Source: Bacillales bacterium UBA7476
GTDB lineage: Bacteria; Bacillota_I; Bacilli_A; RF39; UBA660
DNA: 60,295 nucleotides
Assembly (NCBI GenBank): GCA_002477275.1
Contig: DLOU01000046.1
Coordinates: 25,046 to 85,340 of the forward strand
Reading direction: 5' to 3'
The position numbers were made by a program, and so were the translations under genes. Below, piece after piece: positions 21,896-25,908 of the stretch (positions are counted from its first letter, which is position 1; every line of letters starts with the position of its first letter). The notes beneath the pieces were generated by a model. The model had not been told where the DNA came from. It did not search any database and saw only the letters and a program-made list of their open reading frames with translations.

Positions 21896-21952
21896 TTACT
21901 TTTTACCACAATATTGTTTATATTTCTTACCACTTCCACATAGAGAAAACAT
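21896..21952 (-). repeat. SEC-C motif remnant D (decayed copy of the secA 3' end)
   Basis: The minus strand encodes (M)[17 protein letters not shown]-stop with an in-frame TAA a few codons upstream. The DNA core TGTGGAAGTGGTAAGAAATATAAACAAT matches the secA 3' end. Confidence 0.75.
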
Positions 21953-21997
21953 ATGGGGTTTTTGAGCACATTTGACAGCATTTTATGGCGTATAAAT

Positions 21998-22032
21998 GCA
22001 CTTTTTTGCACTTTATGGCACTCCTAAGCACT
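21998..22032. repeat. four GCACT words phased at exactly 10 nt
   Basis: The sequence reads GCACTTTTTT GCACTTTATG GCACTCCTAA GCACTCAAG. Confidence 0.7.
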
Positions 22033-22049
22033 CAAGAATTTACTTGGAA

Positions 22050-22072
22050 GGTATCTAAAAAGGTATCTAAAA
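22050..22072. repeat. tandem GGTATCTAAAA x2 (12-nt period); a third copy lies at 23576-23585
   Basis: Two copies sit about 45 nt downstream of the MFS pseudogene stop, and one copy sits about 270 nt upstream of its start. Confidence 0.7.
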
Positions 22073-22116
22073 TACTCTTTTAATACTTTTTCGAAATTAT
22101 TTAGCAGGTATCACTT

Positions 22117-23306
22117 TTAAATTTTATTATTCTTTAACTTCCATCGTCTTATTATTAAAGCACTTATACCAAGTATTATAGGAAAACCTATTCCTGAAAG
22201 TATTCCAATTTGTAAATTGTTCCCATTCATCTGAGATACACTTCCTACTATTACAGGGCCGACTGATCCACCTAAATCGCCAGCTAAAGCTAAAAATGCA
22301 AACATTATTGTTCCTCCTTTTGGAAGAATAGATGAAGAAATACTAATAGAACCAGGCCACATAATTCCAACAGAAAAGCCACATAACATACAGCCTATTA
22401 AACCTAAAATTGGAATATTAGTTATTCCTGCTAAAAGATAGCAACAAAAACACACAAATCCAGAAAATACCATAAATACAGTCAAGTCAATTTTGTTGGC
22501 AAATTTCACATATAAAACTCTGCTAAGACCCATAAAAAATGCAAATCCACAAGGTCCTGCTAAATCTCCTATAGTTTTTGAAATATTAAGAGCTGATTCT
22601 GCAAAAGCAGAAGACCATTGTGCAATTACAGCCTCAGATGATCCTGCACAAACCATTAAAATAATTAACATCCAAAAAATATTCGTCTTAAAAAGTTCTT
22701 TGATTGTCATGCCTTTTCCATCTTCTACAATAGGTTCAATAGGACAGGTTGCAAAATTATATATATTATATAACGGAATTAATGCCCATATACAAGACAA
22801 AATACGCCAATGTTCTAGCCCAAATGTTGTAAAGAATAATGTTGAAATTAATATAACTCCCACAGCTCCCCAACAATAAAACGAGTGTATAAACTCATCA
22901 TTCCCTCTTTATTTTCAAAAGGACAAGATTCAACAATTGGACTGCATAGAACTTCAATAAGTCCACTTCCAACAGCATAAACTATTGTACAAATAATAAT
23001 TCCAATAAATGGATATGGCAAAATATTAGGCAAAAATGCAAGGCCTATAAGTCCAATAGCAGAGGTTATCTCAGATAATATAATGCTTATTCTATACCCT
23101 ATTTTATCTACAAATTTTGTACAAGCAAAATCTATTAATATTTGTGTAACATAAAAACAAGTTGGTATAAGTGCAAGCTCACCAAATGATATATTATATG
23201 TTTTATAAAATGTGATAAATAATAGAGGTGCAAAATTTGCCGAAATCGCTTGTGTAATAAATCCTAAATAACATGCTAATAATGTTTTTTTATATTTATT
23301 TTTCAT
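22117..23306 (-). pseudogene. MFS-type transporter disrupted by a 1-nt frameshift near 22893-22900
   Basis: ORF 22848..23306 ends ...KEGMMSLYTRFIVGELWELY-stop. A different frame reads EFIHSFYCWGAVGVILISTLFF and continues seamlessly into ORF 22117..22863, which the track starts at a GTG. Confidence 0.7.
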
Positions 23307-23449
23307 ATCTATCTCACTTTCTATTTTTGCTGCATAACTTGTTTCTAAAATAATATTATATCACTTTTTTGCATATATTTTATAAACTTGTTAATAATAA
23401 TTGTTTCAAGAATGAAATATCAAATCTATTTTTAAAATATTGTTTACAC

Positions 23450-23462
23450 TGTCAATTTGACA
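23450..23462. promoter_or_regulatory. 13-bp palindrome TGTCAA-T-TTGACA upstream of the MFS pseudogene (candidate operator)
   Basis: Perfect inverted hexamers lie about 145 nt upstream of the ATG at 23306. Confidence 0.3.
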
Positions 23463-23639
23463 ATGGACACAATTCTATATTCATTTAAGCTAAAATTCTT
23501 CAAAATTCCTTATAAATAAAGGAAATATGGCATTTTAAGTTCTTGCTAAAAAATTGCGAATTTACTCTTAAAAAGGGTATCTAAAGCATATTCCGAAGTT
23601 CTCGTAGCATGAAAAAAGCCCGTAATTACTAGGCTTATA

Positions 23640-23792
23640 CTACTTTCCATGACATTGTTTATATTTTTTACCACTGCCACATGCGGCGCCATTTAGTATA
23701 TTATCCATACTTATATTATTATGCGTATTTCCTTTATTTGCAAAGGTTTGTGGACAGGTAACTTTTTGTATTTTAAGTACTATTTTTGTCAT
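23640..23792 (-). CDS. 50-aa ORF ending in a SEC-C-like tail (SEC-C remnant C); coding status doubtful
   Basis: The minus strand encodes [50 protein letters not shown]-stop. No convincing RBS is present. The last ~45 nt match the secA 3' end. Confidence 0.3.
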   Translation of the reverse strand: [50 protein letters not shown]

Positions 23793-23817
23793 TTTTTATA
23801 TAAAATATTCGTCTAAT

Positions 23818-23839
23818 GTGCACAAAAAGTGCACAAATA
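23818..23839. repeat. tandem GTGCACAAA(A/T)A x2 (11-nt period)
   Basis: The sequence reads GTGCACAAAAA GTGCACAAATA, and each unit contains the palindrome GTGCAC. Confidence 0.7.
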
Positions 23840-23971
23840 CTAGCATATCCTATATTTTCTTTGTCACTATTATTATACATAATATAAGAATATTAATCAA
23901 TTAATCATTTATCGTAATATCTTAATCTTTAGATATATTTCTTTTTTTAGAAAATTTTACGTATCATAATC

Positions 23972-24005
23972 ATAAAAAGCAAAAGGATTAAATCAATCCT
24001 TTTGC
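23972..24005 (-). terminator. rho-independent terminator of hsp20
   Basis: An 11-bp perfect stem GCAAAAGGATT/AATCCTTTTGC has a 5-nt loop and is followed by TTTTTAT on the minus strand. Confidence 0.8.
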
Positions 24006-24011
24006 AATTCA

Positions 24012-24434: not shown

Positions 24435-24534
24435 CAACTTCCTTTCCTAAATGTGTTGAGCCATTTGAGGTAAGCACATATCAAATATATAATTTTAATA
24501 CCATAGTGAGTATCTTTTTCTCACTACGATTATA

Positions 24535-24562
24535 ATTATACTCAAAAATTAGCACTTGTCAA
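24535..24562 (-). promoter_or_regulatory. sigma-A promoter of hsp20 (TTGACA, 16 nt, TATAAT) embedded in the CIRCE element
   Basis: On the minus strand the -35 at 24557-24562 lies in the CIRCE spacer, and the -10 is at 24535-24540. Confidence 0.6.
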
Positions 24563-24575
24563 TACAAAGTGCTAA
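24549..24575. promoter_or_regulatory. CIRCE operator (HrcA binding site)
   Basis: TTAGCACTT-N9-AAGTGCTAA compares with the consensus TTAGCACTC-N9-GAGTGCTAA, with one mismatch per arm. Confidence 0.8.
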
Positions 24576-24721
24576 TTATTATTCTTTTGGTTATAGATTT
24601 AGAAATATTTAAATCCTAATATCTTAAAATTCAAAGCAATGAAAAAGTCCAAAATCTTCATTCTAATATTACTATTTTACGATCTTAAATGGTAATATAG
24701 CCAAATATCTAAATCAAAGTA

Positions 24722-24739
24722 GCTCCAGAATGGCTCCAG
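24722..24739. repeat. tandem GCTCCAG x2 (11-nt period)
   Basis: The sequence reads GCTCCAGaatgGCTCCAG, between SEC-C remnant B and the hsp20 promoter. Confidence 0.6.
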
Positions 24740-24763
24740 CCCTTATTTTAGATATTTTTTAAT

Positions 24764-24854
24764 GAAAAGAAAAACTCGCGTTTTCCCTTATTTTATCAAG
24801 GTTTACGAGTTATTTACCATGACATTGTTTATATTTTTTGCCACTGCCACATGG
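24764..24854 (-). repeat. SEC-C motif remnant B: ~90-nt copy of the secA 3' end plus its downstream flank
   Basis: The minus strand reads TGA..[18 protein letters not shown]-stop followed by AACTCG(27 nt)CGAGTT TTTC. By eye it is about 85% identical to 25817-25908. Confidence 0.8.
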
Positions 24855-24978
24855 CACTTTGAAACCTCAATTCCGATAACTTCAGGCAAGTTAAATAATA
24901 TATAAATCGTTTTAAATCATTATCAATTCTCGTTAATTCTAATTTTTTGATTTTTTTAATATTATAGTTTTTTCAATT

Positions 24979-25001
24979 AAAGTGTAGACAAATGTGTAGA
25001 T
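24979..25001. repeat. tandem AAAGTGTAGAC AAATGTGTAGAT, immediately downstream of the AlkD-like gene
   Basis: It uses the same word as the repeat at 25761-25791 upstream of that gene, in the same orientation. Confidence 0.75.
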
Positions 25002-25012
25002 TTTTTATTGTT

Positions 25013-25672
25013 TTAAATATATTTACATGCTTCTTTAATGCTTAAATCACTCATTTGATTTTTATACTTGTTTATAAAGTTTTTTACCCAATTTTGATCT
25101 GTTTTTGAATATTCTCTTAATGCCCAACCAATAGCTTTATTTATAAAAAATTCATCTGTTCCAAAATTATTTACTATTATCTTTTCCAATAATTCATAAT
25201 CTGTTTTATCTTTTAAATTCAATTGATGTTCTATTGCAGTTCTTTTAATCCAAATATTATCATTTTTTGACCATTCAAGCATTAGTTCTTTTACTCTTGA
25301 ATCACGAAGTTCCACATCACCAATTACCTTACATAAAAAATCTATTGTATCCCACCAAGATTTAGTGATGATATAATTTTTAATCTTAGTTATATCTTCA
25401 TAGGAAACATATTGTTTCATTGCAAGTAAATAATCATAAACCAAATATTGAAATTCTCTATGATTATCTTCATAGCATTTATCTAAAAATTTCCAATCTA
25501 TTTTTTTTATTTTCTTTTCAGCCTTTATAAAATAATTATATACTTCTTTTCTTTTTGGAGTTGGTAGACCATAAAAATCAAACATGTTTCTCATATATTT
25601 TGACATAGCAACAGCATTCTCTTTATCTTCTCTTGATTCAAATATTTTTTTTATTTCTAAATACTTATCCAT
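25013..25672 (-). CDS. DNA alkylation repair protein (AlkD/AlkC-like HEAT-repeat family)
   Basis: 219 aa. The pattern is ENAVAMSKYMRNMFDFYGLPTPKRKE ... WWDTIDFL ... WIKRTAIEHQL ... FINKAIGWALREYSK. Confidence 0.7.
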   Translation of the reverse strand: MDKYLEIKKIFESREDKENAVAMSKYMRNMFDFYGLPTPKRKEVYNYFIKAEKKIKKIDWKFLDKCYEDNHREFQYLVYDYLLAMKQYVSYEDITKIKNYIITKSWWDTIDFLCKVIGDVELRDSRVKELMLEWSKNDNIWIKRTAIEHQLNLKDKTDYELLEKIIVNNFGTDEFFINKAIGWALREYSKTDQNWVKNFINKYKNQMSDLSIKEACKYI

Positions 25673-25760
25673 AATGTCAACTCCTATATATTATTATATC
25701 ATACTTTTTATAATTCTAACTGTTTGTAAAACAATCTATATTCCAATTTTTCTCATCAAA

Positions 25761-25791
25761 AAAGTGTAGATAAAGTGTAGATAGTGTTGTA
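25761..25791. repeat. tandem AAAGTGTAGAT x2 plus a degenerate third unit (11-nt period)
   Basis: The sequence reads AAAGTGTAGAT AAAGTGTAGAT AGTGTTGTA, about 90 nt upstream of the AlkD-like start codon. Confidence 0.75.
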
Positions 25792-25816
25792 TTTTTTACA
25801 ATTTTTGCAATTTTTA

Positions 25817-25908
25817 GAAAAAGAAAAACTCGTGTTTTTCCTTATTTTATAAGAGTTTGCGAGTTACTTGCCACAGCATTGTTTATATTTTTTACCACTT
25901 CCACATGG
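25817..25908 (-). repeat. reference copy A: functional secA 3' end (SEC-C motif) plus its downstream flank
   Basis: The minus strand reads [15 protein letters not shown]-stop followed by AACTCG(27 nt)CGAGTT TTTC. It is the template for remnants B, C and D. Confidence 0.8.

Follow-up and report, generated by a model that had tools for sequence, protein, structure and literature searches.

Displaced copies of the secA 3' end bound an array of one-gene units in an uncultured RF39-like bacterium: a probable site of repeated integration

The array downstream of secA

When read downstream from secA, a stretch of 60,295 nt from the genome of Bacillales bacterium UBA7476 (assembly GCA_002477275.1, contig DLOU01000046.1; hereafter the window) presents the last codons of that gene four times: once in place, at the end of secA itself, and three more times at intervals on the same strand, each without a secA body. 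These tail copies, 42-45 nt long and named cores A to D (Table 1), encode the end of the SEC-C zinc motif, and they bound an array of short units with a single cargo gene each. A degenerate 29-nt pattern of the tail, run against all 60,295 nt, matches the four copies, all on the minus strand, and nothing else in the window, with no match in 100 shuffles, and a repeat search returned a 43-nt family of four members at 79-100% identity. The recurrence claimed in the first-pass annotation of this DNA, which had been made from the sequence only, is therefore well founded, and so is its statement that copy B resembles the end of secA at the level of DNA. Cores A and B have 98 nt in common at 84% (24757-24854 versus 25811-25908), including about 47 nt past the stop codon with a hairpin and a T-run, and since the likeness runs past the stop codon, an effect of the protein motif is impossible. 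Another post-stop stretch of 29 nt, which the earlier reading lacked, is common to cores A and D at 83% (21846-21874 versus 25792-25820).

The displaced copies are preserved to different degrees: cores B and C keep the whole tail motif, and core D has lost one zinc-ligand Cys. An in-frame TGA stands 18 codons before the stop of core B, as had been read earlier; the in-frame TAA of core D lies 28 codons before its stop, and not 24 as first given. Core C closes an open reading frame (ORF) of 50 aa, which was found as described and whose sole Pfam match is the SEC-C tail; this ORF is a by-product.

Between the four copies lie an alkD-like repair gene, hsp20 and a frameshifted transporter gene of the MFS family, as originally proposed. 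The count of three modules has to be corrected, since a fourth, truncated module lies beyond core D; the window array thus comprises four modules, two of them pseudogenised and the last one truncated. Each has alkD, hsp20, the MFS gene or an unnamed ORF as its sole cargo, without integration and transfer genes. The MFS_1 match is spread over two overlapping ORFs (22848..23306 and 22117..22863). The hsp20 gene has a perfect σ70 promoter, TTGACA-16-TATAAT (24535-24576), with the -35 element within the loop of a CIRCE-like inverted repeat, and with such control of its cargo a module moving horizontally would depend on the HrcA regulon of its host. At the distal end of the array only the first ~75 nt of a P arm of type 1 are present (20898-21012), and the arm breaks off where the next gene starts.

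Table 1. Features of the secA region in the window, in the direction of transcription (P'-like arms follow a core, P-like arms precede one)
Feature	Position	Strand	Description
hpf	28430..28951	-	Upstream neighbour of secA
secA	25864..28359	-	831 aa, SEC-C tail intact; Pfam SecA domains found on the identical gene in L103
Core A	25864-25905	-	Resident tail, joined to secA, from second Cys codon (TGT) to stop; putative att core
P'-like arm, alkD module	25673..25863	-	Weak hairpin and T-run, then pair TATCTACACTTT x2 at 25761-25783; identical arm in L081
alkD-like DNA alkylation repair gene	25013..25672	-	Cargo of module 1; DNA_alkylation, E = 8e-60
P-like arm, alkD module	24852..25012	-	Pair TCTACAC x2 at 24982-25000, 149 nt before core B
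Core B	24810-24851	-	Displaced tail, coding intact, no secA body
P'-like arm, hsp20 module	24438..24809	-	Terminator hairpin homologous to that after core A; pair CTGGAGC x2 at 24722-24739; CIRCE-like repeat at 24550-24576
hsp20 small heat-shock gene	24012..24434	-	Cargo of module 2; HSP20, E = 1e-24
P-like arm (type 1) before core C	23682..24011	-	hsp20 terminator, pair TTTGTGCAC x2 at 23818-23837, AT-rich phased AATAC-like repeats
Core C	23640-23681	-	Displaced tail, coding intact, no secA body
P'-like arm, MFS module	23307..23639	-	Terminator hairpin, word TTTAGATACC at 23576-23585; homologous to the post-secA arm in L019
MFS transporter pseudogene	22117..23306	-	Cargo of module 3; frameshift near 22848-22863; Pfam MFS_1
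P-like arm (type 3) before core D	21941..22116	-	Pair TAGATACCTT x2 at 22048-22069, followed by AGTGC repeats in phase; homology with arms in L019, L043, L018 and prophage UViG_3300028833_003330
Core D	21896-21940	-	Displaced tail, decayed: Cys to Tyr and one extra Lys (QYCGKK), no secA body
P'-like arm, module 4	21703..21895	-	Word TGTTTCCA within pair CCAAAATG x2 at 21825-21843; inverted TGGAAACA at 21783-21790; resembles the post-secA region of L008 and L011
Frameshifted ORF pair (105 + 126 aa)	21044..21702	-	Cargo of module 4; no Pfam match
Truncated type-1 P-like arm	20898..21043	-	ATGTTTCCATTTTGTTTC at 20944-20962, then ATAATACTATA; present distal end of the array

Recurrence, integrases and movement in related genomes

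A scan for SecA in one genome per species gave 80 loci (referred to, like the other contigs retrieved, by L numbers), of which 34 belong to the clade and 46 to more distant Firmicutes; the clade, low in GC and of gut origin, is one that we take to be RF39-like from the labels of its metagenome-assembled genomes, or MAGs (uncultured Bacilli, "Tenericutes", or Clostridium sp. CAG:302 and CAG:762). One or two extra SEC-C tails follow secA on the same strand in 13 of the 34 clade loci, and none was found in the 46 others. Further, partly deleted cores were detected with nhmmer in L043, L025, L030 and L015, and 13 more arrays of two or three cores each (GC 25-30%) came from metagenome contigs scanned with the SecA C-terminus, so that the look for the core and for extra modules in relatives, which the first-pass annotation had recommended, turned out positive. 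Across the related loci there are 39 core-to-core intervals, and beyond the variable stretch the relatives have the conserved backbone prfB-yitT-yitT-ftsE-ftsX-M23 peptidase gene. The closest relative, L043 from water-deer omasum, has a SecA 94% identical in amino acids; synteny with the window is intact upstream and ends at 25820, about 44 nt past the secA stop, and in place of the window modules L043 has argS, hisS and a class II aminoacyl-tRNA synthetase (aaRS) gene, followed by a displaced core. No synteny was found between the window modules and the secA neighbourhoods of the relatives. The same array as in the window is present in L103 (SRR5325268); in look-ups of exact proteins, the window SecA had no match and hsp20 matched this same array only.

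Many MAG contigs (L001, L004, L022, L023 and others) end at most ~100 nt past the secA stop, which is consistent with breaks in assembly brought about by the repeated cores and by strain heterogeneity of the array.

Presence and absence of single modules, which had been named as a test, can be followed in several pairs of relatives, with clean cases at the tail. L032 and L030 can be aligned at 85% identity across secA up to and including its core; there L032 alone has 3.96 kb, consisting of an integrase islet and a displaced core, and a WYL gene marks the return of synteny. In L019, but not in L020, a one-gene module stands between secA and an islet; the islet itself has a counterpart of 96.5% identity in L020, where it follows secA directly. 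L015 and L033 have the same cores with different modules between them, and the first module of L008 is not in L001. Modules are often far closer between loci than the secA 3' regions of their hosts: 90.8% versus ~70% for the hisS module of L130 and L043, 96.9% versus ~72% for a 395-aa module of L135 and L116, and ~95% versus ~74% for the integrase islet of L018 and L104. As for the window itself, its alkD module, from core A to core B, recurs at 97% identity in contig L081, where a module with a DnaJ domain, and not secA, lies upstream and a module with an 86-aa ORF, and not hsp20, downstream; the same alkD-like protein is encoded in L081-L083.

Genes for aaRSs (ArgRS, HisRS, MetRS and a class II enzyme) are found as cargo in L043 (12939-18505), L018 (17378-19009), L016 (13389-14684) and L130 (12715-13992). 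The ArgRS of L043 is only 24% identical to the product of the argS-like gene of the window (46785..48530), so that the cargo enzymes may be divergent second copies.

Among the proteins encoded in the variable stretch of the relatives, a tyrosine recombinase forms the most frequent cluster. A recombinase near secA in relatives was what the earlier reading had suggested seeking, and tyrosine integrases were indeed found after secA, within core-to-core intervals and in prophages. L002 and L003 have an intact one ~200 nt behind secA, and another integrase follows secA in L117; a two-part integrase occurs in L018, L019, L020, L026, L032, L104 and L135, and split forms lie within nine core-to-core intervals, the loci with such a form inside an interval numbering eight or more. 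The L002-type enzyme, found in relatives and not in the window, matches Phage_integrase (1e-24), SAM_3 (6e-15) and, weakly and below the cut-off, Arm-DNA-bind_4 (6e-4). Neighbours of the relatives' integrases encode KilA-N, RhuM, DUF4365, WYL, AbiE, HTH and Bro-N proteins and subunits of type I restriction-modification systems. A second integrase family, of phage type (L090), adjoins secA in IMG/VR prophages. The 40-kb sequence UViG_3300028833_003330 begins with the secA C-terminus, the core, a P' arm, an integrase gene (phrog_1) and a gene for a CI-like repressor, continues with genes for Erf, an exonuclease, a replisome organiser, an endolysin, a helicase and a methyltransferase, and closes with a P arm and a second core. 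It is a temperate phage sitting in the secA tail, with a size of ~39 kb as estimated from the two retrieved loci, which lie at either end of the contig.

In the islet integrase a conserved A8 run (TTAAAAAAAAC) separates an N-terminal ORF of ~173 aa, which includes the arm and SAM-like domains, from a catalytic one of ~230 aa (L018 14002, L032 14007, L026 14125, L019 17426, L104 7427, L135 12668). The same -1 shift is needed in six integrase elements, some only ~70% identical, with both halves open; L020 has A7 at this place, and the integrase of L002 and L003 is unsplit. The split resembles a case of programmed frameshifting at A_AAA_AAA, or else of slippage in transcription, as known for OrfA/OrfAB of IS3 elements; for a tyrosine integrase it would be unusual.

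Arms, displaced tails and neighbouring genes

The DNA on both sides of the cores is rich in closely spaced direct repeats of short words. In the intergenic DNA of the window, pairs of 7-12 nt words with a phase of 10-13 nt, mostly 11-12, number 10 in the 5.7-kb array versus 11 in the other 54.6 kb. Over 36 loci with 54 cores, and against a background of 0.297 pairs per kb, 19 of the 54 cores have a word pair 50-99 nt after the stop, where ~0.8 would be expected, and 11 have one 100-199 nt before the core, mostly near -150 or -129; further out, at +136 to +150, the word often recurs in inverted form. Module ends tend to agree: of 34 modules, 27 have an 8-mer common to both ends, and the mean number of shared 8-mers is 4.8, versus 1.26 for non-cognate ends. 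In the window, the P' and P arms have the same word in the alkD module (TCTACAC), in the MFS module (TAGATACC) and in module 4 (TGTTTCCA). The recurring word families are TAGATAC[CG], TAGATAAGT, TGTTTGCA, TGTCCACA, TGTTCCCA, TCTACAC and TGTCATCC.

The same arms surround different cargo, as can be seen from alignments across loci: the P arm before core D aligns over ~170 nt with arms of a one-gene module (L019), an aaRS module (L043) and a MetRS module (L018), and the P' arm after core C aligns with the post-secA arm in L019. The TAGATACC pair stands at equal offsets on both arms of the 39-kb prophage, with whose arms those of the window MFS module align. No integrase was found among the 10 ORFs scanned in TAGATAC-type modules, the cognate candidate being present in the prophage only. 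From their spacing, sharing and distribution, the word pairs are candidate arm-type binding sites of integrases.

Two further observations concern the arms. From the word pair to the core, the P arms of type 1 have a series of (A/T)AATAC motifs in phase (window 23690-23815; L008 3660-3785; L081 900-1020; also L013 and L018), which may be a second set of sites for protein binding or bending. In L186 (IMGVR_UViG_3300022753_002054, 1681-1950), TAGATACC x2 at -129, a core, a terminator and TAGATAAGT x2 follow one another; two arm families thus surround a single core, and arrays also occur inside sequences called viral.

When the 39 displaced cores are compared with the secA-attached core of their own locus, 226 synonymous and 42 non-synonymous codon differences are counted, and 29 of the 39 still encode an intact tail motif, in a set biased towards intact copies by the need for the first eight codons to be recognisable. 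The predominance of synonymous differences indicates that the displaced tails diverged under selection at the protein level and are not recent copies of the resident tail, as is expected if each of them once served some secA or was the surrogate tail of an element. With respect to the exchange itself, the P' arm of the phage comes with the same core whether its left partner is secA (L090, L098) or the arm of another module (L091), so that nearly the whole tail travels with the incoming element, and this suggests that the phage family exchanges strands near the 5' edge of the core, a position that we infer from such comparisons. A single crossover point within the core was also considered and set aside, its mapping being inconsistent between comparisons.

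Beside the secA operon lies a second small variable insert: at 28952-31373, from hpf to the gene with a cold-shock domain, the window has three genes not found in the otherwise syntenic L043, namely a membrane ORF (123 aa) and the genes for an NAGPA-like protein (305 aa) and a GT2+GtrA glycosyltransferase (338 aa). At the other end, directly after the truncated arm, a 209-aa ORF (20255-20884) without a Pfam match encodes an HxHx(10)SxxD motif (HIHTHPYIGGTCRFFSNQD) reminiscent of JAB/MPN metalloproteases; L101 has the same gene order as the window, with an ORF of the 209-aa type, a 113-aa ORF and a DHH gene. Neither the window nor L043 has the usual linkage of secA with prfB, which L009-L032 show, and the only release factor gene of the window is RF1-like (45102-46160), its product 37-42% identical to the RF2 of relatives. 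TGA is still a stop, ending six of the 48 long ORFs, so that there is no sign of recoding; an alternative genetic code, tried as an explanation of the in-frame TGA and the "frameshifts", was rejected on the same count, and the MFS break is a true frame change.

Origin of the array and comparison with known systems

The explanation that we favour, at a probability of roughly 0.85, is that the last 42 nt of secA are the attB core of several families of tyrosine-integrase elements, and that the window holds a stack of four units without integrase, comparable to cis-mobilizable elements (CIMEs). The core would extend from the second zinc-ligand Cys codon to the stop of secA in RF39-like gut Bacilli, and it would be used by temperate phages of ~39 kb as well as by islets of 3-6 kb. 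With a surrogate SEC-C tail in its attP, and in most cases a terminator hairpin behind it, each element would leave secA intact after integration, and at each event the previous tail would be shifted downstream as a direct repeat. Since any core could be entered again, repeated integration would lead to tandem stacking (accretion), and loss of the integrase would leave short core-bounded units of a P' arm, one cargo gene and a P arm, much like CIMEs; the modules would thus have arisen from larger elements by deletion. The mostly synonymous differences between tails fit an element that brings its own selected surrogate tail. Repeated site-specific insertion at the secA 3' end, as put forward in the first-pass annotation, gains support in this way from recurrence in the clade, from the integrases and the prophage, and from presence and absence of modules.

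It is nevertheless important to stress that several findings weigh against this explanation. With both integrase families of the relatives as tblastn queries, no tyrosine integrase was found in the 60-kb window, nor did all downstream ORFs of the relatives, used in the same way, reveal an integrase remnant; the earlier wording, "cassette-like" but with neither integrase nor attC, is accurate for the window, where the boundaries are direct repeats. Among the contigs retrieved, neither an excised circle nor an empty-site junction of the window modules was seen. The fifth core expected after the arm of module 4 is absent, which, together with the truncation of that arm, implies that the distal att site was lost and that the array ends there. 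The hsp20 module has different words at its ends (P' CTGGAGC, P TGTGCAC), for which reason it may be a fusion of two units. Near-identical N-terminal domains of the integrases of L018 and L020 go with different words (ATGTCCAC and TGTTTCCA, respectively), which weakens the idea that the word is an arm-type site read by this domain, and no clear co-variation of word type with the N-terminal sequence of the integrase was found. The point within the core at which similarity switches varies between comparisons, which fits several integrase families or gene conversion and not one fixed crossover. Finally, about 20 of the 39 intervals contain one gene with arms detectable on both sides, a more regular picture than random decay would suggest.

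This regularity is one of the arguments for a reading that is compatible with accretion and that we hold only tentatively, namely that the one-gene units are true cassettes: minimal circles, made up of P-core-P' and one gene, would be moved in trans by phage or islet integrases with matching arms, with the end of secA as an integron-like capture platform, and units with cargo such as aaRSs, hsp20 and alkD would be traded between distant RF39-like hosts. TAGATAC[CG] arms surround ~10 different cargos among those sampled, never with an integrase, and yet they are the arm family of the intact prophage, and single modules occur at different positions of arrays and in distant hosts at 91-97% identity. 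The lack of a circular junction, and of an integrase in the window, tells against such cassettes as well, deletion derivatives of a prophage that keep a moron gene by attR would look alike, the prophage having non-structural genes by attR, and whole composite arrays could move together. Reshuffling and duplication of modules by homologous recombination or gene conversion, acting on the 42-nt cores and their similar terminator flanks, is unlikely as the principal cause: it would account for the variable switch points, and the 98 nt common to cores A and B are enough for occasional RecA events, but the cores of one array are only 42 nt long and ~80-93% identical, and the integrases and the prophage at the site, the matched words at module ends and the import from distant hosts are left unexplained. 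Homologous exchange between cores may contribute secondarily.

Two simpler explanations are contradicted by the data, and both appear highly improbable. One takes the copies as 3' ends of decayed, dispersed SEC-C genes unrelated to secA, alike in DNA owing to the motif and an AT-rich codon bias; many small, unrelated proteins do end in a SEC-C tail, about 11 of 17 viral matches to the DNA pattern are ORFs of this sort, with 39-245 in-frame residues, and copy C scores as Pfam SEC-C. Against such an origin, the likeness of A to B and of A to D extends beyond the stop codon, and the copies occur downstream of secA only, on its strand and in this clade alone. B and D have in-frame stops at the short distances given above, and the 50-aa ORF of C matches nothing beyond the tail. 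Alignment of the flanks to bodies of dispersed SEC-C genes had been proposed as a test; no such alignment was found, and the flanks of displaced copies, including those upstream, align with the arms of modules in other arrays and with the post-secA region of relatives. The other explanation is that replication slippage or unequal crossing-over duplicated the secA 3' end locally and in tandem, and that unrelated genes were inserted later. It would suit direct, closely spaced repeats on one strand, but the differences between the copies, mainly at synonymous sites, show that these are no recent duplicates of the resident tail; moreover, foreign counterparts of the modules occur in other hosts, and some versions have an integrase.

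If stacking by integration into the secA tail is accepted, the locus is an apparently undescribed, hypervariable integration hotspot of a large uncultured gut lineage, used by temperate phages as well as by islets of very small size; the literature searched contained no description of secA as an attachment site, which is no proof of absence. The essential zinc-finger tail of secA would be encoded by the element that arrived last. The array may explain why several assemblies break just after secA, and with the core as a simple marker sequence, accessory genes, prophages and defence islets could be located in these metagenomes.

The general principle is well known: integration at the 3' end of a gene with its restoration, tandem arrays separated by repeats, and members without a recombinase have been described for fda and ICESt/CIME, for ssrA and for rlmH and its staphylococcal cassette chromosome (SCC) elements. 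Accretion and the CIME concept have been laid out in a three-step scheme for ICESt1 and ICESt3 at the 3' end of fda in Streptococcus thermophilus (PMC5704250), and tandem accretion of ICESt and CIME is credited to Pavlovic 2004 and Bellanger 2011 as reviewed there. There too, an element with a tyrosine integrase enters and restores the 3' end of a housekeeping protein gene, derivatives without integrase keep attL and attR, and further elements enter the resident att site to form tandem arrays (PMC5704250). Several points set the present locus apart: its target is the zinc-finger tail of secA, its host lineage is RF39-like and uncultured, conjugation genes were not encountered, most units consist of one gene and measure 0.7-1.9 kb, and one core is used by several arm families, among them one from a temperate phage. 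The ssrA islands of Dehalococcoides likewise lie in large numbers and in tandem behind a single-copy essential gene, bounded by direct repeats of its 3' end, and some of them lack an integration module and were suggested by the authors to be perhaps cis-mobilizable (PMC3146451). Those islands differ in having a tmRNA gene as target, a 20-bp repeat, a CcrB-like serine recombinase and several genes each, whereas here the target is protein-coding, the recombinases are tyrosine recombinases with arm-like sites and many units have one gene.

SCCmec and pseudo-SCC composites at the 3' end of rlmH (orfX) in staphylococci are also arrays of cassettes, with 3'-end repeats between them and some without recombinase genes. 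The array behind secA resembles them in its place behind a conserved gene, in the repeats of the 3' end of that gene and in members without a recombinase; SCC cassettes, unlike the units described here, measure 3-60 kb and use Ccr enzymes, which are large serine recombinases without arm sites. With integron arrays the locus has in common co-oriented, mostly one-gene units and diverse cargo at one platform. In integrons, an IntI-type integrase with attI and a Pc promoter stands by the array, and the cassettes end in attC sites, imperfect palindromes that fold as single strands. The locus differs from them in that secA heads the array, with no IntI by the platform, no attI and no attC hairpins; its units are bounded by direct repeats of a coding tail together with word pairs in direct orientation, the hairpins that follow the cores have the look of ordinary terminators, the units carry a lambda-like P-core-P' site, and cargo has its own promoters, as in hsp20. 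In the attP of lambda, the core is flanked by arm-type sites that the N-terminal domain of the integrase reads. Similarly, directly repeated words lie ~50-100 nt from the core on one side and ~150 nt on the other, and an arm-binding N-terminal domain is predicted for the relatives' integrase from the weak Arm-DNA-bind_4 match; the difference is that modules on the same core have different words, even where the N-terminal domains are near-identical. If it is true that the one-gene units move in trans, they would form a natural cassette system built on lambda-type sites instead of attC.

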